Shown here: positions 1 to 24,009 of the stretch, piece by piece
Position numbering within the stretch: the stretch's first letter is position 1
Layout of the letters: each line of letters begins with the position of its first letter
Origin: Macrostomum lignano
Taxonomy: Eukaryota
Assembly (NCBI GenBank): GCA_002269645.1
Contig: NIVC01002531.1
Coordinates: 1 to 47,175, forward strand
Direction of reading: 5' to 3'
DNA: 47,175 nt
Translations under genes and position numbers: made by a program
Notes under the pieces: generated by a model
Told to the model about the DNA's origin: nothing
The model's input: the letters and a program-made list of their open reading frames with translations, nothing else
Databases searched by the model: none

Positions 1-926
1 TAGACGAACTTTTCTTGATAGTTTGCGACTAGTCGATCCCAGTTGAATATCGACGAAGACCATAGATTGAGAAGAGCTAGTTTTGAGTCCAGGAATGCAC
101 TGTCAGCATGTGCTGTTCTGTGTCGTGTTCGATTCGGAAGTTTGAAAACTGTAATCAGAAAATCGCGAGTTTGCATGAACTGGTGCATTAGGTCGGTCAC
201 CGTTATTGGGCTACGAAGTGAAGTATAATTGATGTCTCCCATAGGTTTGAAGATGCTTTCGGAGACGGAAGTTTGCAAATCGGACAACCGATAGTTTTCA
301 TCGGATCTGACATTAGCGGTTGTGGGTTCAAATCTCGAAAAATTTAGTGTGGTCTTGAATAGCATCGATTGTTTAGGCAGGTAGTAGTATGGGAAGGCGT
401 CGCATGAGATTAGAGCTGGAGTAGCTGTGGAGACAATACGAGTCGTTGTATCCAAAAATCCAAGAACAGTATAATTTTGTAGGCGGAATTCCAGTGGGGG
501 ACGCGTGAAGCATTGGTTCGTCTTGTACTTTGGTTGGACAAAGCGGAACTGGTGTAGAGGTTTGCACTGGTAGACGAAGAGGTATCCAGCAATGGATCTA
601 GCTCGCAGGAAAGGATCATTTAATAAGAGTCGAGCAGCGAGCGTTGGTTGTGTGTAGTATAACTGTCGGTTGTACTTGAGATTAGTTGCATACATCATGC
701 ATTGAGTAGTTGCAAGCTGTCTGTACTTGGAGAAGGTCTTTTCGAGCTTTACTAGCAGCTCCTTGTAGTTGTCCAGCAAGAAGTTCAGCGGATGCGAACG
801 TTGATGAAAGTTGCGCAGTAGAGTTGCCTGAAGGGGCTGCGATGGTTTTGTCGTCTGTGCTTCGCTTGTTGCGTGGTAGTAGTAGGAGATCCGGTTGACT
901 GCCTTGTGGTTCGTGATGTGGAACTG
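1..926 (-). pseudogene. C-terminal ectodomain of the class III envelope glycoprotein, broken by about 4 frameshifts, open to the window edge
   Basis: Manual translation across frames gives ...LLLPRNKR/STDD..., then NFLLDNYKELLVKLEKTFSKYRQLATTQCMMYATNLKYNRQLYYTQPT, then LAARLL, then INDPFLRARSIAGYLFVYQC...NQCFTRPPLEF...GFLDTTTRIVSTATPALISC. The last frame is open from ~625 to base 1. The pattern matches the core helix and following cysteines of chuvirus G / herpes gB-type proteins as I recall them. Confidence 0.7.
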
Positions 927-3155
927 CTAGATTCGTGTGAATAGAAGCCAGTTGTGGATTGGTTGTTGTCGCTGGTGAGTTCGTGGTGAGGTTGAGGTTG
1001 CAGACTTTGCTGGTGCACTGGTTGTGCTGCTAGAGGTTGAGGTTGTTGGCGGTAAGGTGGTGGTACGAGGTTGTGTCGTCACTTTTGTAGTCGTCGTAGT
1101 TGAATCTGCTGTCGTTGTTGCTGCTGAGGTTGTAGCAGTGGTGGTTGTTGAAGTTGTCGGTGTTACGGTTGTGGTAGGTATTGTTGTCGTTGTAGTCGGT
1201 GGCATTGTCGTCGTAGCTGGTGGTGTTGTCGTTGTAGTCGGTGGTGTTGTCGTTGTAGTCGGTGGTGTTGTCGTTGTAGTCGGTGGTGTTGTCGTTGTCA
1301 AAATTGTAGTTGTTGGTGTTGATTTTGTAGTAGTTAGTATCGTAGTTGTTGGCGTCATTGTTGTAGAAGTGCTTGACGTCGGTGGATGATCAGGTCGCTC
1401 TTGTCGTAAAGGTTGCGGCGGTAGGAATTGTCGTGACTGAGTTGTCGTAGTGAAAGGATGTTGAGTCGTCGATTGCTGAACGGGTAATATTGTTGGTGGC
1501 GTTGGTAGTATCGCTGGTGGTGAACGACGTTTTTGTCTCGAAGAAGTGGTTTCTTCGCTAGTTTGAGGTTTTGGAGTAGCTTCTTCTAATGGGCTTCGTA
1601 AGGTGGCGAGAAATTCTGCTTCTTTGTTGTCGAGGATGTCTACGTATAGACCTTGCGTTGAAAGGTACAACGTCTTACGGACGCCAGTGCAGGTGAGAGT
1701 GTGAGTCGACGGCACTGGGTTGAAGGTTAGTCCCAATGTTTGATCATTAGTTAAGAACAAGCCGGAGTTTAAGTTGCCTTCAAGAGTACGAAATGGTTTT
1801 AAAGGACAATCAGCGAGTGGTGGAGGTGTCCAAATAAGATTTAGATGTCTTGGTCCTTTCACGTCAATTTGGTAGATTGCTTCAGTTTCCAAAGGATCCC
1901 AGGGGGATGTTAGTATTGGCAAAGGTAGGTTGAAAGCTCGCATTTCTTGTGCAGTTGTTTTAATTGTACAAAATTTGTCGGCGAGTTTGCAGTTGTCCAT
2001 TGGGAAGGACAAAGATTCCATTTTTTGATCTGCTGTTGAGTAGGCTGGGATTCCGGTGATCACTGTTGTTACTATTTGTTCTGAATGTGAACCAGGAGTG
2101 CAACGCACAGCATTTTGCGTGTTGAATGTCGATTGCAGGCGTTGGATAGACTGAGTTGACGCAGTCTTTAACACTAATGATCCATCAGGCGATAGCTTTG
2201 TTCGTGCCCAGTTTTCACAATCAGCTTGAGTGACTGGTTGCGGTTCCAACTCTACCAGGGCGGATGTCCAGGTTCTTATCACCGCCTTATCACATCTGAT
2301 AGTGATTTTCTCGCGGAAACAGACAGTCATAACCAGAGAACTGGTTTCCACGTTCGTTGTGTAAAGTTCCAGTTTCAACGGGAGTGTCGGCGTCGTTTGG
2401 TGTTTGAGCTGTTCACAACGGATCTCATGTGGTATCGTGAAAATTCGTGGGATCTGGTTGTACGGACAGACCATTGGTGTGTCAATGAAGCCCTCGTGAG
2501 ATTGTCTCTCAATCGATGGTGGAGTTGACGTCGTTATCGGCGTAGCGTTGGCTAGTGCGAAGAGTGAAGTTGCTAGGCACAGGAGAAAAAGTGTCAGTAG
2601 TGATCGGCGAATTCCGACGGAAGCTTTCACGGTTTTCTCGCGGTTGTTGTTGCTGGTCGGTGGAGTGTAGGCGTTTGTCACTCTTTCAACCGTACAAAGG
2701 CGAATAGAGTTGATAGTCGCAGCGGCAGTAGTCGGTTTTTTGAGTAAAGATTTCAGCTGCTTAGCGTCTCCAGAGTAGCGAATTTCGTTTCCAAAAGTCG
2801 GTGGGCGTTCATCAACTGTAGCAATGTGCATCAGTTGGGCAGACTCGGGAGCGTCGTGAGTCGTCCATCCAATCTGCGGCTGTTGATTCCATCCTGGGTG
2901 GGACGTTTCAGGGTCCTGAGCAGTGATGGCGCGTATCGGTGGATATTGTTGTTGCGCAAATCTCGGAGGTTGTCGTTGATTGTTGGTGCCGTTGTATCGA
3001 GGCGGATAGCGTTGCTGAGGCCGGTTTCCATAGTCTTGACGGGGTGGAAATCGTGATTGTTGTGTCGCCGGTGGACCGTAGCCTTGTGTACGTTGGGCTC
3101 GTAGTCGGCACTGGTTAATAGAGTGTCCTGGTTTTCGGCAATAGTTACAGGTCAA
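927..3155 (-). CDS. Gag C-terminus (second CCHC knuckle, Q/P/R-rich) joined in frame to an internal signal peptide, class III fusion glycoprotein N-terminal half, furin site and mucin-like domain
   Basis: CNYCRKPGHSINQC; hydrophobic RRSLLTLFLLCLATSLFALANA (~2545-2605); CFREKITIRC (C-x8-C), next Cys 24 aa later, like the rhabdovirus G fusion domain; RQKRR at 1524-1538; Thr-rich tract with 21 bp repeats (TTTTPPT). Confidence 0.75.
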   Translation of the reverse strand: MTCNYCRKPGHSINQCRLRAQRTQGYGPPATQQSRFPPRQDYGNRPQQRYPPRYNGTNNQRQPPRFAQQQYPPIRAITAQDPETSHPGWNQQPQIGWTTHDAPESAQLMHIATVDERPPTFGNEIRYSGDAKQLKSLLKKPTTAAATINSIRLCTVERVTNAYTPPTSNNNREKTVKASVGIRRSLLTLFLLCLATSLFALANATPITTSTPPSIERQSHEGFIDTPMVCPYNQIPRIFTIPHEIRCEQLKHQTTPTLPLKLELYTTNVETSSLVMTVCFREKITIRCDKAVIRTWTSALVELEPQPVTQADCENWARTKLSPDGSLVLKTASTQSIQRLQSTFNTQNAVRCTPGSHSEQIVTTVITGIPAYSTADQKMESLSFPMDNCKLADKFCTIKTTAQEMRAFNLPLPILTSPWDPLETEAIYQIDVKGPRHLNLIWTPPPLADCPLKPFRTLEGNLNSGLFLTNDQTLGLTFNPVPSTHTLTCTGVRKTLYLSTQGLYVDILDNKEAEFLATLRSPLEEATPKPQTSEETTSSRQKRRSPPAILPTPPTILPVQQSTTQHPFTTTTQSRQFLPPQPLRQERPDHPPTSSTSTTMTPTTTILTTTKSTPTTTILTTTTPPTTTTTPPTTTTTPPTTTTTPPATTTMPPTTTTTIPTTTVTPTTSTTTTATTSAATTTADSTTTTTKVTTQPRTTTLPPTTSTSSSTTSAPAKSATSTSPRTHQRQQPIHNWLLFTRI

Positions 3156-4480
3156 TCGTGGCGGTCCCTGCTGGTAACGATTTCGCGGGCATCAGAGCCG
3201 TATTGGGCTGTGTTCCTTCGATCACTTGAGTTAGGTCGGAAGGGACGAGGTTGTTGGTCATTCCTTCGACGACAGTCGGCGGCATAGTGTCCAGGTCGAC
3301 CGCAATGATAACAAGTGGGCTTCTGTTGCATATTAGCGATAGGTGGCTTGGTTTGTGTTTGCAGGGAGGCAACCACCTGCTGATTGGCTTCCTTCGTCGT
3401 TTTTTCTAAGGTAGTTAGACGCTCTGTGAGAGCTTTCAAGTCAGTGCCATCAGAGTCCATGGTGGAGTCGCGGATTTGTTCGGCGCGGATGGCCTTGTTG
3501 ATTAGCGTACTTTCCGTGGTGATATTTTGCTTCAAGAGTTCTCGTTTGATGTAGGGTAGAGCATTGTTGATAGTCGTAGCCATCAGGGTAGCAAGGAAGT
3601 CTCGGTTGCGCTGGTCGATGACAGCTTGGTTCGCGGGTGGTGTTTCCGGACCGGCACCTTCCGGAAATTCTTCCGGTATTTCCGGCATAGCTGACCTGAG
3701 CTTTCGACGAATATCGGTGAAATAAGACAGGAACGGTTCGCCGTACTGTTGTTTCCGGGTTGTTGCATTATGCAGCGTTAGAGCCGAGCCAATGGTTACT
3801 TCCCGAAGGCGTTGAGACAGTGCCTCAATGGTGGCTGGATAAGAGGCTTGGACTGCGGCAGAGAGGCGACTGTATTCGAGTTTAAGAAGGTCATTCAGTA
3901 GTCGCGGGAAGAGCCGAATCTTTGCGTTCTCCGATAGTCCAAAGGAGCGTGTGATCAAGTCGAACTCTTCAGTGAAGGAGCGGAAGTCATGCATTTGGTC
4001 GATTCCTTTCAGGGATTGACGAATTTCAGCAAGAGCAGTAGCTGAGACGGGATGGTTTGATTGCAATTGCAGACTGCGGTTCATAACGTCAGTAAGTTCA
4101 CGGACAGCATTTGTCGCTGCAGCATCAACATGGGGAGCGCCGTCCTGATCAGCCATATCTAGAGTAGATTCTTCAGCAATATCGTTTGGGGCTGGTTGAA
4201 CTGTTTCGTCCGCGTCTGTTAGGATGGAGCTGGGTGCTGGTGAGTGTGCACGGTTGTGTTCAAAATGATCCGCGAGAGGGTTATTAAACTCAACGTTATT
4301 TGGTATAAACAGGTTAGGTACTGGTGAACTATTTCGTGGGAGCTGTTCACCTATTTGGCAGTCAGAAGTTTCTAAATTTTGTTCAGGGGGTCTGTTAATA
4401 TTTGAGCTTTGAAAAACTGGTCCGGAACGTAAATCTCGGACAGGTGTGGTCATTAACAAGAATTCAATCAATAATTTCAA
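3152..4480 (-). CDS. Retrotransposon Gag (capsid-like region plus CCHC zinc knuckle)
   Basis: 442 aa ORF with FEEFDLITRSFGLSENAKIRLFPRLL, RKQQYGEPFLSYFTDIRRKL (major-homology-like region) and CYHCGRPGHYAADC. It continues via a -1 shift into the 927-3155 frame. Confidence 0.85.
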   Translation of the reverse strand: MKLLIEFLLMTTPVRDLRSGPVFQSSNINRPPEQNLETSDCQIGEQLPRNSSPVPNLFIPNNVEFNNPLADHFEHNRAHSPAPSSILTDADETVQPAPNDIAEESTLDMADQDGAPHVDAAATNAVRELTDVMNRSLQLQSNHPVSATALAEIRQSLKGIDQMHDFRSFTEEFDLITRSFGLSENAKIRLFPRLLNDLLKLEYSRLSAAVQASYPATIEALSQRLREVTIGSALTLHNATTRKQQYGEPFLSYFTDIRRKLRSAMPEIPEEFPEGAGPETPPANQAVIDQRNRDFLATLMATTINNALPYIKRELLKQNITTESTLINKAIRAEQIRDSTMDSDGTDLKALTERLTTLEKTTKEANQQVVASLQTQTKPPIANMQQKPTCYHCGRPGHYAADCRRRNDQQPRPFRPNSSDRRNTAQYGSDAREIVTSRDRHD

Positions 4481-5792
4481 GGCAACGATAGCACAAAAAT
4501 GTAACTAATAGCAAAGTAGAGTGTCAAATTCAAAGTGAGCAAACGGCAATGGCTTTCAGGGTTGCGGTTGGCGGACTGGCTGAGGAAGGGAGAAAAAGAG
4601 AGACTGTGTAATTTTTTAACTGTGATCTGCGACGAGCTTTGAAAATCGAAGTAATTTTGAATTGAACTGCCTTTTGATTGGTTCTGAAACTTTGAATTTT
4701 GAAATTTTGAACTCGGAAATCTTGAATTGAACTGCCGTTTGATCGGTTCTGAAACTTTGAAACTGAATTTGATAAAGGAGCTCCTGAATGTTGGACTAGA
4801 CGGACATCAGTGGTGGCCAATAAAATCGAATTTGTATCATTGAAGTCGGCAGTTTTCTTTTTCTTGAAGTCGGCAGTTTAGTCTTTTGAAGTCGGCAGTT
4901 TTCTTCTGAGAATTTGTTCTGGCTTTTTGAATTTCGAATTTGAATTTTGAACTATCTGACGAGTTTCAGCTAGGGGGGTTGATTTCATAATTTTAAGCAA
5001 GCGTAGAGTAATGTTTTTGTAGTTTTGTAAATTTGCTATTTTTTAATTTTTGAAAATTTTATAATTTTTATTGATCGGACTGATCATTTTGTAACTTTAA
5101 CATGATAAGAGCAGTACGGGTTGTACGAAATGAACTATAAGCAATGGTATTGTTTTTTGTGTTTTCAAGTTTTATTATTTTTTTTTTGCGATCTAATGAT
5201 CATTTTGAGTTTGTCGCAGGCTACGAAAATACTATGTGAATAGTCTAGCATAGATGAAGCGAAGAAGAGTAAATGGAGACGTGCGTTTTTTGAGGTTTTA
5301 AATTTTTTATATTTTTTGTCGATCAAATGATCATTTTCAAAGTAGTGTTTACACCATGCAGTTTAAAGTAACAGAAGGTGAGCTGGAAATGAGACTACGA
5401 TCAAAAGACAATGAGAGAGTATAGTATATTTACAGGGCCCAAGGGGGGCTGATGCTGAGGCGATAGAAATTGCGGCTTATGGGGGGGGGATCACTCAGGG
5501 CGACCACCGTATGCGGAGGCGAGAAGTTTGGGGCAAGGAGAGTCGCTAACGTCAAAACAGGGGTCGTCGGTAAAGTCGGGGTGGCCAACTATATGTTCCC
5601 GGTGGAACCGAGGGAGGGTGAGGAAATGAGCTTCAATGGCCTGACCTCTAGAACTGCCGCGATGGCGCGTCCAGGTCGACCAGAAGTGGTAGCGGAGTTG
5701 GTAAGAGGCAAGGTGGAACAGGCTTAGGGTGAGTCGAAACGGGGGGAACAAAGCTCTGGAGCAATAGTTCGTGGCGTTCACACTCCTCGTCA

Positions 5793-6295
5793 TCAATTTT
5801 GACAGTATATTCGGCGGAGATCTTTGTAGCGAAGAGGAACGCCGGTATGAAAATCAACGCAACGCAGAGCGCGGAAGAGTAGCTCGAAGTCCTGGCCTCG
5901 GAGGGCTATATCGACGATTGCGGACTTAAAAGCTCCTTGCAGGGGCGGCAGATGGAGGCCTTCGAGATGGAATAGCATATTGTCTATCTGCCCCGGGATG
6001 TGGCATTGGAGGCAGTCATAAATGTGGGTCAGGTAGGAATCAGTAATGGTGAGGACAAACTTGGTTACGGGACCAGGGCGTCCATTACAACTGAAGAGAT
6101 CGTGAAACAGGGAATCCGGGATTGCGGGCTTGACGGTACGAGGAAACGGAAAGGGCGAGAGATAGGAGGGGTGATAGTAAATGAAACTGCGGCGATGTTG
6201 GCAATAATACGTCTGACACTGGCAATCAAATAGTGGGACATCATCGGGGCAGTAAGGGATGCGGCTTCAGCGTAGATACGTGCGAAAGTAGTCAT
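5793..6295 (-). pseudogene. Accessory ORF of unknown function (~165 aa, one frameshift) in the retroelement leader
   Basis: ATG at 6295 (MTTFARIYAEAAS...). A frame change near 6140 continues RTVKPAIPDSLFHDLFSCNG...DCLQCHIPGQIDNMLFHLEG...RRIYCQN*. It is a moderately GC-rich island between AT-rich spacers. No family recognised. Confidence 0.4.
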
Positions 6296-9194
6296 GTTGA
6301 AATTATAATAAGTGAATTAAAGTACTTTAATTTAATTTACAGTGTTACCAAGTTGCTGGAACGGTAGAGACTGGATGTGAAGAGTGTCGTTCTTGCAGTT
6401 GGCTTCGTAGTACTGGAGAGGAGATTGACTCAAGAGTGCAGGATTCTGTCAATCTATAGTGCTGCAAAAGTGCTAGTATAATAGTGCTGTTGATGGCGAA
6501 TTCTGAAGGGAGTTGGGAACAGAGTTTGCGGCGTCCTCATTGGTTGGTTAGGGGGATTCCAAGCCATGCCTGGGAGACGGGGCGGTTATATTGGTGAAAC
6601 TGAAGGGGGACGGGTAAGGCTTGCTACTCCTTCGCGACTCCGCTACTTCAAACACTCCCGGACGACAATTGCTCGACTATTCATTATGGCTATGCAAGCT
6701 CAACTCGAAAGGACGAGGAAGACGGCGGATCAATGGTGGTGGCTCTGTCGGCGGTTGTGGGAGCTCGAATTGCTGCTGGAGGACGGCTGGCCCCGCGACA
6801 CGAAGCGGGGTGCTCGGCGGGGTTCGCGACTCCTGTCAGCGTTCAGGCGGCTAGTCACACCCGTCCGTAAGTGGTGTGAGCGCCGCCTCGAATGGTGGCA
6901 GGAGCTCCAGCACGTGGAAGAAGAGATTGTAGCGGGACGCCGATGGGGTAATTTTATCCTAGTTTAATGTAATGGAAGGGGCTAACCGACTGAAGGTAGG
7001 GGTAATCTTGAGTTTAATTTTTTGTAATTTTGTATAGTTTTTGTAGATATGCTAACAACAATTGAATTACTTATTAGTGTACATATATTTATATTGTTAT
7101 TGTTGCGATTACCCTTTTGTACGTGTGAATGTTTTTGTAAAAAAAAAAATACATAACTAACCTGTTTAACTATTTGAATTGATAAAGGCTGCTCAGGTTA
7201 GAGGGGGGGGGGGCTATGGGTAGGGCTCAATCTTGACAAAGCAAAGGATGGATAGCGTAACAAGATGGTTAACAAAATAAGTAGGGCAAAAGCTGTATGG
7301 GGCACTAAGCATCTATTGCCTTTGGCAATAGGGAGATGAGAGAAAAGTAGAAGTTGTTTGGATCTTAATCCATCATACAAAAACGAGAAATGGCTAGGAG
7401 AAGAAAAAATTCCTGGGGAAATTGTTTATCAGAGATCGTGAAAAGGTCGCTGAACCGGAGGGTGAGTGGCAGGATGGAGCTGGCCTGGACAGTTTGATTA
7501 AGGAAAAGATTTTTTGTGGGAGATAAAGTTGAGTGATGGTTTTAATCAAGAAAAGAGGTCGCTCTGGGAGGTCGAGTAGGCACACAAAGTCTGATGTGGG
7601 CAGTTTGTTTAAGATTAATATTTATTGGAGGGAACTGGAGTTGATTAAACACGCAAGAAATTCCCAGCATCCCGAATGATCCATAGAAGGCAACTGCCAG
7701 AATCAGCAATCCGAAAAAAAAACTTGGGTCGATAAGGATTTGATGGATGGGGCTCGTGGGGTTTGCAAACAGTGAGTTTGGAGTGTTTAATCAAGAAAAA
7801 TAATGAAAGGCTAGGCAAGCGGTCTATGAAAATCAGAAAAGTTTTCCGGATGAAGCACGCAGGTTCGGCAAACAATTGGTTGGGACTTTAATCAAGGAAA
7901 ATGATGAATGGTCAGGCAAGCAGCCTGTCGGATAAGCGAAAAAAAATTTTTTTTTTGTTGACAGCAAGAAATTGGTGGCTCCAGAGTTTGATTAATATTT
8001 GCTGAAGTGACTTTGTTTGAATAGCTCGTCAGGTTTTTTGCGTTTTCGTTCTTTCTTTCGGGCGCTTAACGGCGCAGAGAATCTGAGATAAGCCAGTTTT
8101 CTAGATGTGGCCACACACTGGGAAAAACCGAGGAGGAAACGAATGGCTCAGTCACTTTGGAGAGTTTCAAGTTTACTTGAGGAAATCCAGAGTAGACTTT
8201 GCTATTCTATGGAAAAGCAGTGAAGAAAGAAGCGTCCAACATTAAATAAACTTGAACAATTGATGATGCCGCGGTCTTTGAAAAATCGAAGCTTGGAAGC
8301 TTGAACAATTGAGGATCCGAATAACTGAATTGAATTTCTGCATTGAAGCTCTGAGGCTTGAGAATAAGAACTCGATATCAGACGTTCGACGACGTTTCTT
8401 GAATTAGAGTGAAATTGAAATTGTTCCGGAACGATAATTTATTGACTTTCATGGATCCTTTGAATCTGAAAAAACTTGAATCAGGTCTCAGTGCACTGGA
8501 CAAAACTTAGAACCGATTTGAATTCTGAATTGGAATTTGAGAGCTCGTGATTTACGATTCATTCTTCGAATATGTATTATTGACAGTCTCGAATGCTCAA
8601 AGGGGAGGGGGGGAAGCCAGTCCAACCGTTCACACCCATCAGCCACGCCTATAGCTGTCTACCCCATGCAGGGCATAGCGGCTATTGTGGTGAAACGCAT
8701 CGGAGGAAAAGTACGGTCAGGGAACCAGTGAAATATTTTAAAATATATGTTATTGTTCTTCTTCTGGTCTCTCACTTCTATGGCTCTTGTTCTACTTCAA
8801 ATATCAATGTGAGAGCCAAATAACTGAGGCGGCGGATTCAACTGACTTTTCCTGATGATGCAAACACTTGATGGTAACTTACAGACCGTTGTATTTGATG
8901 GTCACAATCTCGAGATGTTTTCTCACAAAATATAATGTCTAAGGTGGAATTCCAAATAAGAAGCTCGTTCGATTTAAGTCACAAGGTGTTTCTAGTTGTT
9001 CGGATGAACCGAAGGTTCAGTCTATTGTGAAACGTGGATTGGGTGTTGGTTTGGCTTTAGTAAGTCGACTTATAAGTTTTGGTGTTTGGGTTGAGACCCT
9101 AACTGTGTCAATCAAAATAGTCAAACGAGGCAAGCTAGGAGAAAGGCGAAGGAGAGGCAAGGGCGTGGAGAGGCGGAGCGAGCAGAAAAAAGGG

Positions 9195-9332
9195 GGGAGC
9201 TTCTTGCTTGGTTAACATGAGCTTTTATAGTACTTTTCAGTCTTGATCGCATTGGATGGTACATAACTGCTTTTCATTGGTTGAGGTTGGGGTCGTGTCC
9301 TCAGCTTTTGCTATTTGGAGCGCATTCATTGG
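9195..9332 (-). promoter_or_regulatory. Pol II promoter facing the gag-env unit: TATAAAAG plus three CCAAT boxes
   Basis: cttttata at 9222-9229 reads TATAAAAG on the minus strand. ATTGG occurs at 9251, 9276 and 9328; the latter two sit in identical AACCAATGAA context. A pyrimidine-rich initiation region lies ~25-30 nt downstream. Confidence 0.6.
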
Positions 9333-11741
9333 TTAAAATACATTCAATCTGGATGGGAGCTTTCTAGAGCCAAAATGTATCACTTCACAATAAAAACTCT
9401 GCTCTTTGCTAAAGCTTGGATCAATCTCAACAAATCATTTGCCAAAATGGCCAGCTTTAGACAATACTAGTGCATTAAGCCCCTAAAGGGGGCATTCAAA
9501 TTCAAAATCCAAACATTGAAAGCATGAAAAAAAACTTTGTTTTTTGAATAATTGACCTACTAACAATTGGTAGACATTTTATATACCCAAGTTGCCAAAT
9601 GAATTTAAATCAATTGGGCCCATTAGCTACTGCCCTGCCTGAATCTACAACTGTACCACTCAGTGTTATATTCATAAAATAAAACAAACAAGATCAGAGT
9701 AGTTTAGGGGGTTGATAGATTTTAGGCTAGCTTTTTAACCCCCATGCACCCACTCTTTCATCAACAATAATAAAATTCAACCAACCCCACAAATTGCAAG
9801 CCTGTCATGCGAAGGGTCATAAAACTCCTTTAAATTAATTGTGGTGAATATCCTACACTGTACATTGGCCAAGGAGAGGCCTAAATGGTTGAACTGAGCA
9901 ATTAAATTTAGAAACAGAGCACCCATTGAAAGTATAAAAAATTTTTTTCAAATATTTGACCCACTTCCCATTCAAATTTTTCATCAAAAGTTATGCATGA
10001 TCCCAAAAAATTTAGAATTTTTTAAGCAAATTTAAAAATAATCAGCCAAATGGTTCTAAAAAAATCAAGAACAAGCAGATAGACAGCGCAAAATTAGTAT
10101 ATTTAGATGGTCATTGCAAAAGTATTTTTTGCCATTATTGACTTTTGCCCAAAATTCCTTTTCCAAAGTGGGTTAAAACTGCATAGAGGGCTTATAGCAT
10201 CTTTTCTTATGAATCTTATATATACCAAATTTGTATATGTACAAAATTATTGATCATTTACTTTCTCACATTTAATTATATTTTCTTAAAATTTTGTAAG
10301 TTTTTTAAGTTGTATATATAGTCTGCATGACTACTTACCTCTTGACTTAAGTTATGAGTCCAATTTTATGGAAATATAGTAGTCCATAGTAAACTCAAGT
10401 AATATATAGTTAGTCAATATAGGCAAATGCACTAGATAGAAACTTAGTAAGCCAAGATTGCCATAAAAAATTTTCTTTATAGAATAGGCAATGGCTATTT
10501 TGTATAATTTATATATTTGCTATTTAAATTAGCTAAATTAGTATACTCATATTAGTACATATTATGCAATGGATAAGGCCCATAGGCATTGTCAAGAAAG
10601 TGGCTTTTGCCATAGAAAATTGTAGCATAAAGGTGTTGTGGCACAAATGACTAATAGTGCATTTTATTATTGTAAGATAATTCCTATAGACGTGCTAGAG
10701 GATTTGCACTTTATAGGTATAGGCTTAAAGCTAGTGAATACTAGCTGGAAAATCAAAAGTTATACCATAGTGCAAATGATACAACAAATACCAGCTTATT
10801 CTGGCATACAAAAAATTTGTTAGTATATACTGGCATACAAAATTTGTCTCAAAGCTACATTCTAGTATAGATTGGCATAAACTAATGTACACTAATATCA
10901 GTGACATGTACTTAGCAACATTGAAAAGTCACCATCAGAAAAGATTCTATCTATGGTTCCCAACTTCGTAAATGCAAGTAAAGCTTCTCAATGTTTACAA
11001 ATAACACAACTTAGCTATATTGCAGCAGACTTAAGTTGAATAAGTCTAGGGGAGCAGTTGCAAGGGTTGTATAGATTAAGGCTACTCCAATCAGTTTTCT
11101 TATATCTTTATGTTTTTAACTTTTCAATATGGTATATACTAAGCCTTTGTGGGCCTTTGATGTTGATAATTAAGGAAGCTAAAAAATGGTACAATATACA
11201 TTAGACTACCAGTTGTCAATTAGTCACTGTGTCAGTTTTCATCTTATGGTAACAAACAACTAGAATGCTATTGGATATTTTTTGTTTAGAAAAAAATAAT
11301 TTCATTTAACAGATTAGAAGTTTTACAAAGTATTACTTTTTACATTAATTATATATAGCTTTTGTTTAACTATGATTAAACTAAAAAAGCTAGAAATTTA
11401 TATGTGATTTAAGACAAAATGGTCAGTTTTATAGTTTTATTTAAAGTATAACTATTCAAATCCTGTAAAAATTATTAATAAAATATTGGCTGGTACATTA
11501 TTGACATTGTAGTGCAGTGCAAAAATGGAACCTATCTACTCATACCTAGTTTAACTGCTAGCTTTCTTATTTTCATGCTATTTAGCTTGTAAGATCTATG
11601 TAAGTAAATCTATGTAAAATAATTTTATGTCCTATGACTGTTTAAATAGCCAGCATATTTGCAATTGGCCTGCGGTAGCTCAACATAGTAACATTTTAAG
11701 TAAGTGATAATCTTTTCATATTTTATTGCTGTCACCCACAG

Positions 11742-12355
11742 GCGGGCAGCAGGTTCGCTACGCCCACACGGACGTGTGCAAATACCCCAACTTCGATTAC
11801 TACCGCCGCGACTCCACGCGCGATCCAACCAAGAGCCAATCCGAGACCGAGGTTGACCGCAAGATGGTCAGCTACCTTGTGGTCGGCGTTGGCCTCTCCG
11901 TGTTCGCCGTGGGCGCCAAGCAGCTGGTGCGGGCCACGGTGAACTTCCTGAACCCCAGCAAGGCGGTGCTGGCCGTGTCCAAGCTGGAGGTGGACCTGGC
12001 CAGCATTCCCGAAGGCAAGAACGCCGTGTTCAAGTGGCGCGAGAAGCCGCTGTTCATCCGGCACCGCACGGACGCGGAGGTCGACTCCGTTGCCAGTGTG
12101 TCGCTGGAGGAGCTGCGCGACCCCGAGACTGACCAGGATCGGGTGAAGGACCCGAAGTTCCTGGTGCTGCTGGGCATCTGCACCCACCTGGGCTGCGTGC
12201 CGATCTCGCACGCAGGTGAGTACGGCGGCTACTACTGCCCCTGCCACGGCTCGCACTATGACGCCAGCGGCCGTATCAGGAAGGGCCCGGCGCCGCTCAA
12301 CCTGGAGGTGCCGCCCTACAGTATCAGCGACAGTGGCGTGCTGGTTGTCGGCTGA
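11742..12355 (+). CDS. UQCRFS1: Cytochrome b-c1 complex Rieske iron-sulfur subunit, terminal coding exon (upstream exon not in window)
   Basis: CTHLGCVP and CPCHGSHY 2Fe-2S motifs, GPAPLNLEVP, and a TM helix. Acceptor cccacag at 11735-11741 (phase 1). Stop at 12353-12355. Confidence 0.96.
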
Positions 12356-13855: not shown

Positions 13856-14014
13856 TGTTGTGCTTTTGGCTTTTAGCCTTTAGCAATTGTCAGTCTAGCG
13901 GTCTGCTGACCTCTGACGCGTCTATTCTTTTTTTCATAACTCAATAGCATGGTTCAATTCATCAACGCAGTCGCGTAACAAAAATGTCTATGGCAAAGCC
14001 ATCAACCCACAACA
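13856..14014 (-). repeat. 3' LTR (159 bp)
   Basis: TGTTGTG...CACAACA termini (7 bp inverted repeat); identical by eye to 23851-24009. Confidence 0.96.
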
Positions 14015-14672: not shown

Positions 14673-17600
14673 TCAGGGGGACCCGTCGGTCTCGCCTGCA
14701 GCGCGGTCCTCCTCACCGACGGTGGGGAAGAAATCAGCTCGTCCGGTGTCCCTGAGGTACCGGGCGAGCAGCGGGATGCTCTCGGGCCTGCAAACGTCGG
14801 AGAGAACCGGGTTTGGCCCGAGGTGAGTAAGCCTGGCCCTGGTGAAAACCGGGCAGTGGCAGATAAAATGCTCGGCGTTTTCACTGCCTGAGCGGCAGAA
14901 GGGGCACCGCTCCTCGGGTACTTGGCCCTGAAGGAAGCGGTGGCGAGAGAAGCAGCCATGCCCGGAGAGGGCCATGCTAACTGCTCTGAGGTCTCTGCGG
15001 TTGAGCCTGAGGAGGGCTCTACGCAGGAGAGGAGAGGGACAGGGGACGGCAGCACGGGATTGCCTACAATTCCGGGTGTCGTGCCACCTGCGGAGATGCT
15101 CGGAGTCAGCCCAGCGCTTAACGCGGGAATTGATTACCGAGGCGGGGATGGGGGCACCCGGGCCCGGCCCCAATAGCGCGCCGGCGGAGCCAGCAGGTCA
15201 GCGCGCTCGTTGCCGAGGAAGCCGGCGTGGCCCGGGATCCATCTGAGCTCCACCTGGTTGCCTAGCGCAAGCCCGTTGAGCTGGGTGTTGCAGTCCAGGA
15301 CGGACCTGGAGCTGGCGGTGCTGCGGCAGAGGGCCCGAAGGGCTGCTTGGCTGTCAGAGTGAAAAATAAATTTCCGGCCGCTAAGCTGCCTTCGGCGCAG
15401 CTCTGCCGCGCAGGAGCTGATGGCAAGCACCTCGCTCTGAAAAACACTGGAATTGAGCCCAGTGTGCTGGGAGTAGCTCCACACCACTTCTCCCTTGAAG
15501 AAGACGCAAGCTCTGAAGCCTGAAAGACCATGCCTCATAGAGCCGTCAGTGTAACAGTGGACTTCAGAGTCGCTCCAGCTGTCACTCGCCTCGTGTCGAG
15601 GCTGAATGGTGACCTTGTACCTTTGGCTCAGGAGAAGGGTGGCTGGGATCGAGTCCGTGAGGATGTTGAGCCCGCCACACTCCTCGAGAGCCTTGAGGCA
15701 GAGGTCAGAGTGCGGGATAAGCGACCGCTTCTTAAAGGCCCGCACTTTCTTGAAGGCCACCCCAGCATCCAGAAGACGCCGGGTGCTCTTCGCCGCCTCT
15801 CCTTTGATATAAATATCCAAAGGAGGGGCACAGAGGAAGGCATTCATGCCTTCAAAAGGAGTAGAGGGTGGAGCGCCCATAGTCATGCGGCAGGCTCTGC
15901 CCTGGATTTTGTAGAGAGCGTCGAGGTTGCTCTTGACGCTCAGGCCGCTAGCCCACACGAGGCTGGCGTAACTGATCGAGGGGCGGATGATGGCAGTGTA
16001 AATCCACCACAGCTTCCTGGGGGTGAGCCCCCAGGTGGTGCCCACGGCGCGCCTGATCTGAGCCAGTACAGCCAGGGCTTTTTTGGCTTTAGTTTGAATG
16101 TGCGGAGTCCAGTTAAGCCTGTGGTCCAGAGTGAGGCCCAGGCAGCGGACCTGCTTCTCCATGGAAATATTCTTTCCATAGAGGGTGAGGGGCTTAATGG
16201 TCCAGAGCAGTTTGTTGGTAAACATGACTGCTGTGGTTTTCGACTCTGAGAGTCTAAGGCCACATTGGTCTGCCCAACGCTCCGCTCGTCCCAGAAAGCC
16301 CTGCAGAAGGTCTCTGATGGTATCAACCGAGGGGCCCGCGCATATCGCGGTCACATCATCGGCATAGCCCACCTTGAGAATGGGGTCGTGGAGATCACTG
16401 CAAAGCAACTCATCCATGACCATGTTCCAGAGAACGGGGGTGAGAACGCCGCCCTGGGGGCCCCCTTTCAGGACAGGCACCGAAAGAGAGCTGCCGCTCA
16501 GGTGGGCCACAACAGTGCGGTTTCGGATCATGAACATGATCCACCGGACAAGGTGAGGGTGCGTGGCCCTGGATTCCAGGGCTCTGCAAAAGGCCTCGAA
16601 GATGACGTTGTCGAAGGCCCCCTCAATGTCCAGGAAAAGCGAGAGGGCAAAGCCGCTGCCAAGAACGGCCCTCTCCAGGAAGTCAACAATGACATGGAGA
16701 GCACTCTCGGTTGACCTGCCCGCGCGGAAGGCGTGCTGGTTCTGCGAGAGTGGGAAGCGCTTCAGCTCGACCGAAAGTAGGCGCCAAAGCACCAGTCTCT
16801 CGAGGAGCTTGAGGCAGAAAGAAGTGAGGCTGATAGGCCTGAAGGCCTTCACCGATTGGTAGTCGCTCTTTCCAGGCTTGGGGATAAAGACCACCCGGGC
16901 CTCTCTCCATGCAACTGGTACATAGCCCAGCTCCATACAAGCTCGAAGGAGACGACAGAGCAGGTCCAGGAAGCGGTGGTTTTTCACCGCCTCGTGCAAG
17001 AACGCTGGGTAGATGCCGTCGGGCCCAGGCGCCTTGAACGGGTTAAAGGACCTTGCCGCTCTAATAATGCGGTCTTTGGTGATCATAGACTTTGCTAGGC
17101 CTTGCCCTCCCACTGTGTGGTCGGGCGGGCCCTGCTGAGTCGGAGATTTAGGGAAAAAACTGTTGAGCATGAGCTCTAGAGTCTCTTCCGAACTCTCTGT
17201 GACCGAGCCGTCAGGTCTCTTCACAACAGAGAGTTTAGAAAAACGGTCATTAGTGAGTGCCTTAACCACGCGGGCTACGGGGCGAGAGCCCTCAAGCCCT
17301 TCGCAATATTGGCGCCACTTGGCCGTCTTGGCCCTTCTGACTTGGCCCTTAAACTCGTGGATCGCACGGGTATAGGCCTCTCTGTCAGATGGGTCTTTGG
17401 TTTTGAGCGCTCGCCTTTGGAGGGTCCTGGCTCGGCGCCGAAGGGCCCCGAGCTCTGGGTTCCACCAGGGAGCAGATTTCTTGCCTTTATAGGCCTTTAG
17501 GGGGCAGGCTGCTTCAAAGGCAGTGGTGATCGCCCGCCCAGGGAGGAGGCGAGATCGTCCACCACCTGGCAGTCAGAGAGGTCACTGGGGGGTCAAGATC

Positions 17601-18365
17601 CCGAAGGCCGCGGCTCAGCTTCGAGCCAAAGGCGGCCCAATCGGTGTTCCTGACGTTCCGACTCCAAGTGACCTTAGGCTTTTGCTTGGTCGGCCCAATG
17701 CAAAAGCGGATAAAGCGGTGGTCCGAGAGCGAGTCCTCGTCCCACACTCGCCAGCCCGTAACTGCGGAAAGCAGTCCGGGTGAGGCGATGGTGGTGTCGA
17801 TGACTTCGGCCCACCGCCCATTATTGAACGTTGGTGCATTGCCCACGTTACAGAAGTTGAGGTTAGTGCTGCTGACATAGGCCAGCAGCTCCTCGCCTCT
17901 GCTATTGATGTTCTTGCTGCCCCAATGCAGGTGGTGTGCGTTCACATCCCCTGCAATGAGCAGCTCGAACCGATGGGACGCAGCATAGTCAGTAAGGTTG
18001 ACTAACGCGTCGCAGACAACTGGGGCATCGCCCGGGAAATAGGCAGAAGCTACCAGCACAGGTTTATTGGGAATGAGGTTATTGATTTGAACAACACAGA
18101 TGTCCCCAGTCGAGAGATCAGGTCTCATCCATGCCTCAAAAGCTTTTGCAGCAAAGACCAGAGATCTTGGGCGAGGCTGAGAGCCCGCCATGCAAAAACA
18201 GTGGTAGCCAGATGGCACATTATTTGGCTTACCTTTAGTCATCCAGGGCTCCTGTACGAAGACCAGGCCCGGAAGCTGTTGCTCTGCCGTGCGCATCAGG
18301 TTGACCGACGCCGCCACGCAGTGCTGGGTGTTGATCTGCAGACACCAGGTAGTCGCTGGCATCAT
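14673..18365 (-). pseudogene. LINE ORF2: APE endonuclease, reverse transcriptase, RNase H, CCHC finger (3 frameshifts)
   Basis: APE motifs QINTQH, QEPW, GDVNAHH, SDH (17514-18365). RT motifs FRPISLTSFCLKLLERL, LDIEGAFDNV, PQGGVLTP, YADD, and RNase H YTDGS...WIPGHAG (15134-17269). C-terminal CPFC...HFICHC (14673-15173). Shifts near 17570, 17535 and 15190. Confidence 0.93.
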
Positions 18366-19881
18366 TGCAGATCGGATGTTGCAGCCGCCAGGAGTTCCTC
18401 CTCCTCCTCGGCGCTCACCGGCTTCGGGTCGGGGTCGCCGGTGTCCATGGGCTCTTCTTCAGCAAAAGGCCCCCGATTGGCCGGAAGGCAGTAGGCAGCG
18501 TTCGCCGCCCTTTGCCCACCATCCATGGGGTCCTCCGCCTCAGATTGGCCCAATGCCCTGGAGCAGCCAGCCGCCTGGGCAGGCGGGTCCGTCTCCAGTC
18601 GGCCCTGCCCCGAGGGGTTGGGCCCAGCTGGGACGTCCCCACCCTCCCTGGACGAACTGGTGCGCCTAGGCGTCCCGGCGACCTCTCGCCTCAGCTGGGA
18701 GATTTTGGCGGTACGGACTGCCTCAGCTGCACGCTGGTACAGGCCGCGCCGCTTGGTGCTGCGCGCCGGGCGTCGGTCGCCTCCGCCCTCAGCAGCGCGC
18801 TCAGCTTTGCCCGCGCGGCCGTGCTGCCGGGCAGGGCGGTTTGCTTTGGCAGTCTGAGCAGAGGCTTGCGCCTCGGCCCCGGCCGCCTCCGCATCCCGCC
18901 CGCCCTGCTCACTGCCACGGGGAGGGTCGGCCTCGTAGGAGCGGATGCGCAGCTTCCAAAGGCCGACGTTGATGAAGCTGCCGTGTGGATAACGCCTCAT
19001 CCAGGCGTCCGACAGCCCCAGGATGGCTGTGAAGCCAGTGCCGTCGGTGCGCTTAAGGGTGTCATGCACCACTAGGCCCGCGGCGGGAAGCTCCCGGTTG
19101 ACTGCTAGCAGTCCTTTCCGGAGCTCGTCAGCAGAGGTAACAACGCTCCTGGCCGGGACCCAGATTCGATGCCTCTTGGTCCGGGGGCGCTCGTCCTCTC
19201 TGCAGAAGGCTAGGTTGAGGTCCCAGCTCTGCTCGGGCAGCAGCTCAAGGAGCCGCCGACCCGAGTCAGCATCACTGGGCCAAATGAGAAGGCACGAGTC
19301 CCTCGTCGCATTCGAATGAATGTTCAGAGGCGTGCCCTTCAGAGTTTGCTTCCACAGGAGGCCATCAACGGCACTTCTCACCTGCTTCAGCTGATCGGGA
19401 GACAGGCGCGCGTCCTTTCCCAGGATGACAACCGCCGGTTGCCTCTTTGCCGCATCAGCGTAGGAGGCCCGGGGGTCAGTGGAGCTTTCTTCAGGTGGGC
19501 TGTCCACCCTCCCGGCTGCATCGGCCTCCCTATCCTGGGCAGGGGCTTCCGTGGGCTCGAGGCCCTTTCCGCCACCGCCCCAGACTGGGAAGCTTCCGCT
19601 GCCGCGGGCCGTTGGCCCCTGGCACCGGTTTGGCTTCCGCCCTCCTTGGCCCGCCTCGCCTTGTTAAGTCGACGGCGGGCAGCTCCAGAGGTGGTGCTGC
19701 GTTTCTTAGCAGCTGGAGTAGCAGGTGTCTTCTCGGAGGCACCGCTCAGAGTTGGCTCCACGGGTCTCGCCGAGGCGTCCCCGATGGTAGCAGGTGGTAT
19801 GGCCGAGGAGTCCACGGCCCCAGCCGAGGCCGGAGGCACTGTGTCATCCACAGCCGGTTTGTTACTTCGGTTAGAAGCCAT
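18362..19881 (-). pseudogene. LINE ORF1 (basic N-terminus, DUF4780-like domain), one frameshift
   Basis: ATG at 19881 (MASNRSNKP). A -1 shift leads into the 18362-19507 frame (RHRIWVPARS...LLAVNRELP...INVGLWKLRI). No zinc knuckle. Its TGA overlaps the ORF2 ATG. Confidence 0.8.
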
Positions 19882-20101: not shown

Positions 20102-20340
20102 CAGGACCCGGCGCCAACGAATCAGCTCGGCAGGGCCCAAGGGGGCCTGCCTTAACACCCACGGGACGAGTACCCTTCGAAGTGCGCCTTGCAAGGTGAA
20201 AACCAGGAGACAGAGTCTCTTGAGCTATCAGCCCGCCAGGGGAGGCAGGTGTGAGCATCGCTGGCTGGGATAAAGGCCATACCAGTCTCATACTGCACAG
20301 ATAGTTCACCACGCCATTACGTGCAGGACCCGGGGTCCTG
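20102..20340 (-). ncRNA. Candidate structured RNA in the LINE 5' UTR (copy A)
   Basis: Conserved motifs and compensatory base changes relative to 35028-35247; see findings. Manual comparison of two sequences only. Confidence 0.55.
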
Positions 20341-20357
20341 GGGGCAACAGCCCCGGC

Positions 20358-21160
20358 GTAGAAATCTGTCAATACTTCTTTGGGATAAACCATTGGTCTT
20401 GATTGTCTCTTTGACGGTTCGCACCATTCGCTCTGCAATGCCGTTGCTCTGTGGATGGTAGGCGGGCGTTGTGATGTGCGAACAGCCAATCTGGGTGAGC
20501 CAGCCGGTCACCGCTTCGCTCACAAAACTAGGGCCGTTGTCTGACACGAGACACTTGGGCACCCCCTGTTGTGAGAACAATCTTCTAAGTCTGGAAATGA
20601 CTGTGTCGGCCTTCATGTCGCTCGTGATGAAGACTTCCGGGTAGCTCGAGTGCGCATCCACAATGATGAGTAGGTACTTGCCCTCTATCGGACCGGCAAA
20701 ATCAATGTGCACTCGCTCCCAGGGGTTGTCAGGTTCTGGCCACGAGTGCCGAAAGTTCTTATTTCTGGACTTGTACGCGTTGCACACGTTGCATCGTCCA
20801 ATGTAGTCAGCGATGTCACGGTCCATCTGTGGCCACCAGAACTGTTCCCTCAAAATTGACTTTGACTTTTCCACCCCAAGGTGCGTTGAGTGTACAGCTG
20901 CCAGGGCAGTTTCTCTCAGGACACGAGGCAATACAATTCTGTTCATTCTGTAAATAATTCCATCATTGACAGTTAGCTCATCTTGAACCTTCGAGTAGCT
21001 GAGTAGGTGTGGGTCGTCAAATAGATTATTGTTAATTATGGCTGCGCCCAGGCATCTGAACTCCGGGTCCTCTCTGGTTGCGTGTGCAATGCGATCCAGC
21101 TGAATTACTCCCGGGTTGTCAGCTTCGAGGAGTCCGATCGATGCTGTCTGTGCATTCGGC
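20358..21160 (-). pseudogene. Gypsy integrase N-terminal and core domains
   Basis: HSTHLG...CNVC zinc finger; D,D35E motifs IDFAGP, SDNGPSF and SNGIAER. Joined to pol by a -1 shift near 21160. Confidence 0.92.
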
Positions 21161-23822
21161 TTAGCGGCACCAGTCGAGATAGCGCATCCGACAGCATTAG
21201 CTTTGATGGTCGATACTGTATGTCATAGTCATAAGCAGCTAGTATGATTGCCCATCGTTGTAGTCGAGCTGAAACTCTGGTGGGCAGCTGTTTGTCTGGC
21301 GCGAATATGTATGTGAGGGGCCGGTGATCAGTTATCAGTGTGAACCTCCGGCCATACAAGAACCGATGGCATCTTTGAATGCACCAAACCAGTGCCAGGC
21401 CTTCACGCTCTATTTGCGAATATTTTGTTTCGGCGTCAGACAGAGTCTTGCTCATGTACAGCACGACTTGACCGCTTTGTGTCAACACTCCGCCCAGAGC
21501 TCGCTGAGAACTGTCGCATTCCAGTTCAATGGGCTTCTCCGGATCAAATATTTGAAGACTCGATTGGTCAGAGAGAGTGACCTTGATTTCGTCAAATGCT
21601 ATTTGACACTCCTTTGTCCACACGAAGTCCTCATTTTTCTTTCTTAGTCGATTGAGAGGCTTGGTCAGTGCAGCTAGGTTTCTGATGAACTTGCCGCTAA
21701 AATTTACGAGACCCAGGAAAGATTCAAGCTCGCCAACGTTCTGCGGTGGTGTCATGTCCTGGATTGCCTTCACTTTGGCTGGGTCCGGCTTGAGCTGATC
21801 TCCTTCCAATAAGTAGCCTAGAAACTTGATCGAAGTCTTGCGGAATTCACTTTTCGCCGTGTTGATCTTCAATCCTTGCTGGTTTAGTCGATGCAATACT
21901 TCCGTCTCACGAACTGCCAATTGTTCTACGCCTTTGCCGCATATCAATATGTCGTCTACGTAGGCAATGACGCCAGGAATTCCTTGTAGGACTTGGCTAA
22001 TGTACCGCTGGAAGATCGCAGGTGCTGTTTTCACTCCGAACGGAAGCTTGTTGAAAGCGAACATCCCAAATGGTGTTGACATTACTGTCAGCTCTTTGGA
22101 AGCTTCATCTAGTGGGATCTGGTGATAAGCTTTCTCTAGGTCCAGACGAGTGTATATCCGGCTGCCAGCAGCAGTTGCAATCACTTCGTCAGGTGCAGGC
22201 ATCGGATATGAATCGTTGATAAGATGAGAATTGATTGTCACCTTGTAGTCGACGCAAAGTCTGAGCTTTCCAGAAGGTTTCTTGACCACGACAATTGGTG
22301 AGGCCCATTCACTGAACTTGACGGGCTTGATGGTGTCTTCTTCAAGCAACCGATCGATTTCATCCTTGACTCCCTGTCTGAGTGCGAAGGGTAGCGGCCT
22401 GGGTTTGCAATGAATTGGAGTGGTTCCTTCCTTGATCTTAAGAGTTACTGGTGGAAATTCGCATGACTGGGTTGGCGATGTGCAGCTGTTGTCTACAGCG
22501 TTTAGCGTGAAATTGAGCTTGTCTCGGCCAACCAGAACAAAGTTCTTCTGCGATTCCACAATGAAGAATGTGATTGGAATGAACTCATCATTGTACTCCA
22601 ACTCAGTGTCGTGTGTTCCAAAGACCTTCATCTGCGTATCAGCGTATGTTGTCAGAACAGTGTCTGTAGGTGTCAGCTTTGGACAACCCAATCGTTTCCA
22701 GATCGTTTTTGACATTACTGAAACTCCTGCCCCAGTATCGATTTGTGCGTTCACGCTAAGCATCGACCCGCTCGTGTGTCTGAGCCTAACAGGCACGGTG
22801 TAGCTATCAACGGGATGTCGAATGTGAAAACAATCCTCCTGTTCAGCTTCGCTTGCATCTACAAAGCTTGTGGTCCTTGGCCACACTGCAGCTCGCCTAA
22901 ACTGACCAGATGCTGACGGGCTTTTGAACGATTTTCGGCCTTTGCCAAAACCAGTTGATTTCGTTTTGCAAACTGTTGCGAAGTGGTTTTGCATGCCACA
23001 TTTGTTGCACGTTTTTCCTTTCGCAGGACACCCTCCATTGGAGCCATGCATTGTGCCACATCTGCCACACTTGGAGCTTGTAGAGTGGGAGCCTCTGGTC
23101 ACCGATGCTGAAATTTTCATTACTTCAGAAGACTGCGGCTGACTGGTGCAACCCTTTAGTATTTGCGTTTGTGATAGGTTCTGGTGCGCCTCAGCGATGT
23201 TGATAGCTGTCTCAAACGTGAGAGTGCTGAAGTCCTGTTCCAATAACTTGCTGATGGCCACCTTGTCATTCAAACCGAATACGAGCTGATCTCTCAGTCT
23301 CTCATCTCTGGATAGGCCAAACTGACACTTGTCTGCCTGCATGCAGAGTTGCTGTGCATACTCACGAATGCTCATTGATGCCGTGCGAGTGATATGCTGG
23401 AAATTGAATCTCTCAGCCATGACGAACGTCTTTGGTTCCAGGATGCTGGCCAGTAGTTTGGTCAGTTCATCGAAGCTCTTTTCTCCCGGCTTCTTGGGAG
23501 CGGCTCGATCTGCCAATGCGTCGTACAGCTTGGTGCTGAGCTTCATCAGCAGCAGCTTGTTTTTCGTGTCGTCCTGCCAGCCGTTGAGTTCGCTGCACAG
23601 TGTGAATCGGTCCAACCACCTCTGGAAGTTCGAACTTTCATCGAGTTTTTCGATGTCAACTTGCTGTCCTCTCGATACTTGTGCGCTTGGGTTCTGCGCT
23701 GTCGCTGTTGCCGACTTTGTCGCTTGGACTGATTTCGACGAGATCGCAAGCGGTGGTACTTTGTCGCTCGAAACCGTTTTACCAACTCCTTTAGTTGGCG
23801 ATGCTGGCGTACTTCCAGGCAT
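21105..23822 (-). CDS. Gypsy Gag-Pol: gag with two Cys/His knuckles, aspartic protease, RT, RNase H
   Basis: RLRDQLVFGL; CGRCG..H...CPAKGKTCNKCGMQNHFATVC; IDTGAGVSV; LRLCVDY; YVDD; ECDSS...YSQIEREGLA...TDHRPL...DALSR. Confidence 0.95.
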   Translation of the reverse strand: MPGSTPASPTKGVGKTVSSDKVPPLAISSKSVQATKSATATAQNPSAQVSRGQQVDIEKLDESSNFQRWLDRFTLCSELNGWQDDTKNKLLLMKLSTKLYDALADRAAPKKPGEKSFDELTKLLASILEPKTFVMAERFNFQHITRTASMSIREYAQQLCMQADKCQFGLSRDERLRDQLVFGLNDKVAISKLLEQDFSTLTFETAINIAEAHQNLSQTQILKGCTSQPQSSEVMKISASVTRGSHSTSSKCGRCGTMHGSNGGCPAKGKTCNKCGMQNHFATVCKTKSTGFGKGRKSFKSPSASGQFRRAAVWPRTTSFVDASEAEQEDCFHIRHPVDSYTVPVRLRHTSGSMLSVNAQIDTGAGVSVMSKTIWKRLGCPKLTPTDTVLTTYADTQMKVFGTHDTELEYNDEFIPITFFIVESQKNFVLVGRDKLNFTLNAVDNSCTSPTQSCEFPPVTLKIKEGTTPIHCKPRPLPFALRQGVKDEIDRLLEEDTIKPVKFSEWASPIVVVKKPSGKLRLCVDYKVTINSHLINDSYPMPAPDEVIATAAGSRIYTRLDLEKAYHQIPLDEASKELTVMSTPFGMFAFNKLPFGVKTAPAIFQRYISQVLQGIPGVIAYVDDILICGKGVEQLAVRETEVLHRLNQQGLKINTAKSEFRKTSIKFLGYLLEGDQLKPDPAKVKAIQDMTPPQNVGELESFLGLVNFSGKFIRNLAALTKPLNRLRKKNEDFVWTKECQIAFDEIKVTLSDQSSLQIFDPEKPIELECDSSQRALGGVLTQSGQVVLYMSKTLSDAETKYSQIEREGLALVWCIQRCHRFLYGRRFTLITDHRPLTYIFAPDKQLPTRVSARLQRWAIILAAYDYDIQYRPSKLMLSDALSRLVPLSRMHRQHRSDSSKLTTRE

Positions 23823-23837
23823 TTTCGTAGCCTATGC

Positions 23838-23850: not shown

Positions 23851-24009
23851 TGTTGTGCTTTTGGCTTTTAGCCTTTAGCAATTGTCAGTCTAGCGGTCTG
23901 CTGACCTCTGACGCGTCTATTCTTTTTTTCATAACTCAATAGCATGGTTCAATTCATCAACGCAGTCGCGTAACAAAAATGTCTATGGCAAAGCCATCAA
24001 CCCACAACA
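23851..24009 (-). repeat. 5' LTR (159 bp)
   Basis: Identical by eye to 13856-14014. Confidence 0.96.

Follow-up and report, generated by a model that had tools for sequence, protein, structure and literature searches.

Env-bearing LTR elements are normally arranged as gag-pol-env, and the initial annotation of the locus described here stated this as the rule. Put in this way, the rule misses gag-env-pol elements that have already been published (Chary & Hayashi, eLife 2026, PMC13524379; Arkhipova & Yushenova 2019, PMC6431247). In the planarian element Burro/GYPSM1, env lies in frame between gag and pol, which is called "the first case" in the accessible part of that report (PMC6431247), and errantiviruses of GAG-ENV-POL order with gB-type env have been reported in Nematoda, Bryozoa and Platyhelminthes (PMC13524379). 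The latter report, in the sections available, lists LTR data for a single flatworm entry (LTRs of 864 bp, size about 10.6 kb) and cites the nematode NERVs (Sacco et al. 2022) for a flipped env/pol order; in a word search of its main text, "polyprotein", "frameshift", "splic" and "accessory" did not occur. A literature search for papers on LTR-element envelopes in Macrostomum found none.

The window analysed here is the whole stretch of 47,175 nucleotides (C2531:1-47175) from Macrostomum lignano. It carries on its minus strand the 5' half of an element, and its start is the edge of the contig, which falls exactly at the start of the TM anchor. The 5' LTR (8729..9387, minus strand, 659 bp) has TGAA...TTCA ends and is directly followed by a primer-binding site (PBS; 8714..8727, minus strand), which we take to be of the tRNA-Glu type; a tRNA gene search of the window found none. 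The leader contains an accessory reading frame, ORF-U (5491..6295, minus strand), which is broken in the window and has a BC-box/SOCS-box-like motif near 5730-5690, and a putative antisense ORF of 157 aa (6494..6967, plus strand) without Pfam match. Gag (capsid) is read from the ATG at 4453 (3152..4453, within a frame at 4504-3152, minus strand) and includes CCHC knuckle 1 at about 3313-3272 (zf-CCHC, E 3.8e-6). A second minus-strand frame (3191-927) holds knuckle 2 (about 3149-3108) with a Q/P-rich linker (together 2610..3149), an internal signal-peptide-like segment with basic residues, a hydrophobic core and A-x-A (2544..2609), and the glycoprotein, and two further frames on this strand (1029-682 and 926-3) carry Env on to the window edge, the last of them giving a weak match to the Monjiviricetes fusion protein (E 0.0066). 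Within Env, likewise on the minus strand, a beta-rich and confidently modelled N-terminal part with a furin-type site at its end (1524..2543), which by analogy may represent gB domains I/II, is followed by a Thr/Ser/Pro-rich mucin-like linker between two furin-type sites (874..1523, with a break near 988) and by a C-terminal part comprising a long helix, a beta domain and the membrane-proximal region (1..873, with a break near 719). The succession of knuckle 1, knuckle 2, Q/P-rich segment, signal and glycoprotein described by the initial annotation was thus borne out on the minus strand, as was the stop-free stretch from knuckle 2 to env; inside the window, ORFs and Pfam also agreed with its statement that pol is absent both from the gag-env interval and from the sequence upstream.

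From this layout the initial annotation had read a "pol-less" unit and offered three options, i.e. a non-autonomous structural-protein helper, a domesticated virus-like-particle system and an element with gag-env-pol order. A search of the same genome with the gag-env DNA gave 22 near-full matches of 94-100% identity, the window copy among them, and in all 21 others RT was located downstream of env. Leftward extension, which the initial annotation had proposed, was possible in the fetched copies, where the TM anchor, PR, RT, RNase H, integrase, a further frame (ORF-D) and the 3' LTR were all found beyond the position of the window edge. The order in the copies was LTR-[ORF-U]-gag-signal-env-TM-PR-RT-RH-IN-ORF-D-LTR, with the Pfam domains gag-asp_proteas, RVT_1, RT_RNaseH, Integrase_H2C2 and rve in gypsy order, and six complete copies measured 14.8-17.3 kb. 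The LTRs were 653-659 bp with TG..CA ends, and a PBS followed every 5' LTR listed. The two LTRs were without any substitution between them in four of seven contigs and differed by 7, 8 and 17 in the other three, and a 4-bp target site duplication (TSD) was present in 5/7 contigs. Several of the matches probably belong together as halves or alleles of a single insertion, since flanks pair up across contigs, and the 12 distinct 4-bp flank words among the copies suggest about a dozen insertions. One such partner may exist for the window itself: contig C3894 overlaps window positions 2-5868 with an identity of 99.25%, includes RT as well as a 3' LTR, and has as its 3' flank the same 4-bp word as the 5' flank of the window (a match expected by chance at about 6%, among about 15 flanks), so that it is likely the missing half of the window's insertion.

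These results bear directly on the pol-less reading. The window itself is without pol, and one internally deleted copy exists (C1861:77270-90174, with RNase H joined in frame to the beginning of Env), although this copy is without most of env, PR and RT. The window stops at a contig edge, its likely other half carries pol, and the 21/21 other matches with pol refute the reading for the family, so that a pol-less Gag-Env helper or a domesticated virus-like-particle gene, which was the main reading of the initial annotation, is hardly tenable. A non-autonomous helper is at odds with the LTRs, TSDs and PBS, with insertions numbering about a dozen and with a pol after env that is under purifying selection, and a domesticated particle system with a multi-copy family having pol, LTRs and TSDs, which is not a single fixed locus. 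The gag-env-pol order is the only one of the three options that holds. The element had been misread because of the contig edge and copy-level indels, and caution is in order elsewhere, since contig edges and scattered indels can mimic "pol-less" units and frameshifts.

Weak DNA matches (70-81%) on C1493, C1419, C725, C1101, C620 and C859 were rejected, being mostly repeat-derived frames without pol or knuckle motifs. Two copies at C172:391920-418200 are in tandem with one LTR in common. On C2365, mismatched flanks and 17 LTR differences were seen, and this contig is perhaps recombinant or chimeric.

We consider it very likely that the window contains the 5' half, cut off by the contig end, of a Ty3/gypsy-type LTR element that is young and multi-copy and encodes Gag, signal, Env, TM and Pol in one frame, likely as one membrane-threaded polyprotein that would build enveloped particles. 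Membership in Ty3/gypsy is indicated by the LTRs, TSDs and PBS together with the PR-RT-RH-IN order with a gypsy-type RNase H and an H2C2 integrase, the RT having been compared by pairwise identity among families of the same genome. Env between gag and pol, a gB-type Env with signal and TM, and near-identical multiple copies were all found, and by these shared features the element appears to belong with the published GAG-ENV-POL gB-type Ty3/gypsy elements. As far as the accessible text of PMC13524379 goes, the likeness to its errantiviruses extends to the Ty3/gypsy-type pol, the gene order, the gB-type env between signal and TM, the multiple copies, the LTRs and the PBS. Judged by LTR length and PBS only, the flatworm entry listed there matches a sister family, F7, on C2112. 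The family in the window differs from that entry in its LTRs (653-659 bp) and its size (14.8-17.3 kb), and its RT-RH is 40% identical to that of F7. With Burro, as described in the accessible part of PMC6431247, it has in common an in-frame env in one polyprotein, an env related to mononegavirus glycoproteins, CCHC knuckles, an upstream accessory ORF and ubiquitin-pathway cargo. Burro exceeds 30 kb, about twice the size of the present family, and unlike Burro, in so far as it is described there, this family has a mucin-like linker in Env and a SOCS-box-like ORF as cargo. In Pfam searches of its polyprotein, BIR, MATH, Bcl-2, Ubl and ankyrin gave no match, zf-CCHC being the only one in Gag-Env; a spacer of more than 200 aa between PR and RT, also without Pfam match, is a candidate place of the Burro dUTPase-like segment. 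On these comparisons, the family does not appear to be Burro proper. An in-frame env between gag and pol is already published, so the layout adds a family and not a principle; what the element adds is the mucin-like linker and a likely Elongin-binding ORF-U.

The initial annotation had also proposed one -1 shift between the two knuckles, which could be taken as a programmed frameshift setting the ratio of Gag to Gag-Env-Pol. The frame does change there in the window (3180..3192, minus strand), and a break between the knuckles is present at five further loci. The gag-env region of the window copy, however, has three breaks (near 3186, 988 and 719), and at every one of these an indel separates the window from all four short-read contig sets (4/4), whose contigs have full depth there. 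Near 3186, an indel also distinguishes 20 of the 21 other copies from the window, and knuckle 1 and knuckle 2 were in one open frame at 15/21 loci (those with both knuckle motifs seen, out of 23 examined). No slippery heptamer was present at 3160-3190, the eight heptamers in 1-4460 being all elsewhere, and sister families are in frame at this place. A programmed -1 frameshift is therefore very improbable; what interrupts the frame is either an error of assembly or a lesion peculiar to the window's assembled copy, and not a recoding signal.

Other junctions were in frame in 15/18 (knuckle 2-signal), 20/20 (ectodomain-TM), 12/21 (TM-PR), 8/21 (PR-RT) and 9/15 (RH-IN) cases, and 34 of 46 indel sites were private to one copy. 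In one copy, 2086 aa can be read without interruption, starting at the Gag Met, passing Env and PR and ending within RT. A second copy has an open stretch of 1753 aa that leads from Env as far as RNase H, and a third has one of 1154 aa from RT to the end of IN. The whole frame was unbroken in 0/8 ten-kb loci examined of the window's family, so that for this family the full single frame is pieced together from open stretches that overlap between copies, and is further based on the sister families. In the latter, the whole Gag-Env-PR-RT-RH-IN was in one frame of 2458-2859 aa at 9/20 loci, which had been chosen partly for long frames, suggesting that one-frame gag-env-pol is the rule in the group. 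The Env C-terminal part alone gave 137 matches in the same genome. Between subfamilies, dN/dS was 0.05 for capsid, 0.04 for PR, 0.04 for RT-RH, 0.15 for IN, 0.29 for the mucin-like linker and 0.10 for both halves of Env, the last value placing Env under purifying selection and showing that it is kept functional.

Regarding Env, the class III fusogen call of the initial annotation held up in three comparisons. A profile from a 37-sequence alignment matched herpesvirus gB chains with a best E of 2.6e-16, and the AlphaFold model (mean pLDDT 63, pTM 0.46, 270 residues at 90 or more) matched gB in Foldseek (E 6e-14) and in VIA (Z 12.5, rmsd 10.1 Å, 414 aligned). Env is thus predicted to have a gB-like class III fold, as judged from a model with pTM 0.46 and an rmsd of about 10 Å to gB. 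The best viral match of the model was a nyamivirus G, and other mononegavirus glycoproteins also matched. The NERVs of nematodes reportedly have a continuous gag-env-pro-pol ORF with a nyamivirus-like env and accessory ORFs; the present family resembles them in the flipped env/pol order and in having nyamivirus G proteins as its best viral Env matches, whereas its host is a flatworm and not a nematode and no helicase cargo was seen. Database searches gave 35 relatives of Env at E 0.001 or better, and several of 21 scanned relatives join gag, an Env-type glycoprotein and a protease in one protein; a screen of 2430 candidates for homologues of the Env N-terminal part among longer proteins gave none (0/2430), which is weak evidence. 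A signal-like segment with basic residues, a hydrophobic stretch and a small-residue end precedes Env in 7/7 frames examined, and a TM segment precedes PR. The mucin-like linker is about 240 aa long with 67% T+S+P, is disordered in the model and is followed by the long helix. Of eight frames examined, the three from the most closely related families (RT-RH 74-76% identical) have this linker and the other five do not. No description of a mucin-like Env linker between two furin-type sites was found in the literature searched. A public gene model of 3187 aa (P0009), containing pieces of a related element fused to laminin domains, is likely an annotation chimera.

We propose that one polyprotein would cross the ER membrane in a flavivirus-like manner. 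Gag would remain cytosolic, the signal segment would take Env into the ER lumen and be cut there by signal peptidase, and the TM would halt transfer so that Pol comes out in the cytosol on the tail of Env; the element's own protease would then release Pol and trim Gag. Furin may cut both ends of the mucin-like linker, by which the fusogen would be primed or unmasked. Gag, Env and Pol would be produced 1:1:1, and it would be the Env tail, not a Gag-Pol fusion, that brings Pol to the budding site and into particles. Such a 1:1:1 ratio is unusual among retroelements, which favours the possibility that the single frame is a genomic layout only and that splicing or internal initiation yields separate Gag-Pol and Env. 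In line with this split expression, the signal segment contains an acceptor-like site, and in 6/7 frames Met codons occur no more than 120 aa ahead of the signal. Yet a motif scan of four families revealed no donor near the end of gag and no donor/acceptor pair common to the four, in one family Met is absent from the 120 aa next to the signal, and the four contig sets over window positions 1-9500 showed no joint inside gag-env (contigs drop rare forms). The open frame and purifying selection are moreover continuous through the linker, signal and TM tail. Split expression of the same element is thus unlikely, and the membrane-threaded polyprotein is the reading that we prefer. The occurrence of several young one-frame families in one genome makes stoichiometry and Pol packaging from a single Gag-Env-Pol frame testable.

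ORF-U, located upstream of gag, encodes 269 aa in an unbroken copy and has a Cys/His-rich N-terminal part. A 2.1-kb leader block containing it (window 5210-7300) is missing from seven fetched loci of a short subfamily, suggesting that ORF-U is dispensable for copying; in comparison with five divergent copies it is under purifying selection (dN/dS 0.22-0.38), and a near-identical copy gave 0.58. Searches of Pfam (including SOCS_box) and of PDB sequences gave nothing significant, no homologue was found among 257 candidates, and the structure model of ORF-U alone had a pLDDT of 37. A BC-box pattern, which was written after the motif had been seen and is not evidential, occurred 0 times in 75,546 residues. 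ESM Atlas returned SOCS_box clusters (0.92, 196/256 features) with low recognition (1540). With regard to a cullin box, a Leu-Pro motif was seen about 25 aa beyond the BC box. When residues 180-250 were co-folded with the host's own Elongin C, the score was 0.62, compared with 0.23 for the best control; the mark used for complex scores, which this pair passed, is reached by 51/78 solved versus 2/108 mismatched pairs. The runs agreed in at least 77% of contacts with a partner pLDDT of at least 54, and the predicted interface consists of BC-box residues 188-208. Since similar BC-box/Elongin C complexes have already been solved, the score may reflect the predictor's memory of these and speaks for likeness, not for binding.

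In lentiviral Vif and in cellular SOCS-box proteins, a BC-box helix sits in the groove of Elongin C. ORF-U is similar to these in a predicted BC-box-like helix in that groove, in lying outside gag, pol and env and in its Cys/His-rich N-terminal part, and no sequence relationship to Vif or SOCS-box proteins was found in the Pfam, PDB-sequence and homologue searches. By this likeness, ORF-U is probably a separate Elongin BC adaptor, predicted to send a host factor for degradation. Full-text literature searches found no SOCS-box/BC-box accessory gene in LTR retrotransposons, and such a gene, if it holds, would point at a host factor restricting elements of this kind. It is conceivable, though doubtful, that the element as a whole has converged on tricks of vertebrate viruses, with a Vif-like ORF-U that turns the Elongin BC-cullin ligase of the host against a factor of restriction or silencing, a class III fusogen shielded by a mucin that furin releases, and Pol carried on the Env tail of a flavivirus-style polyprotein.

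The second accessory frame, ORF-D, is conserved, 320-390 aa long and located between the integrase and the 3' LTR beyond the window edge (L039:3048-4049), with a dN/dS of 0.33-0.44. Pfam gave nothing significant for ORF-D, and its ESM Atlas matches were Ulp1/C57 protease clusters (0.84), which we treat as a lead to a possible Ulp1/C57-type protease. A relationship between ORF-U and ORF-D was ruled out by comparison, and no homologue of either was found in the flanks of eight sister-family loci. The 3' accessory ORFs of two sister families show a RING-like Cys pattern, that of F7 (L128:8702-9406) with a zf-RING_2 hit of E 2e-4, below the cut-off, and that of F6 (L127:8683-9423) with no zf-RING_2 match. 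These RING-like ORFs suggest that ubiquitin-ligase capture may recur in the group. The F7 ORF begins with Met-Gly and could be myristoylated.

Tandem mosaics of errantivirus pieces were noticed at C2121:43000-73000, with homologues of ORF-U and of the gag start and with pieces of ORF-D. The same region (L190-L192) has three Cys-rich RING-like ORFs, one of them near-identical to the F7 3' ORF, and similar matches occur on C87 and C1130. The mosaics may represent a trap of the piRNA-cluster kind, or else a cargo element that arose by recombination.

In the rest of the window, an ordinary env-less gypsy gag-pol element (20317-23831, minus strand; 159-bp repeats at 13856-14014 and 23851-24009) contains a nested non-LTR retrotransposon (about 14700-19700). 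Host-like genes, read by eye from the translations, were seen at 11711-12355 (plus), 27213-30050 (plus) and 39801-42192 (minus), those listed being for a Rieske iron-sulfur protein, a two-pore potassium channel and a glycoside-hydrolase-like protein. Another non-LTR element, in a decayed state, lies at 36100-38900 (plus).
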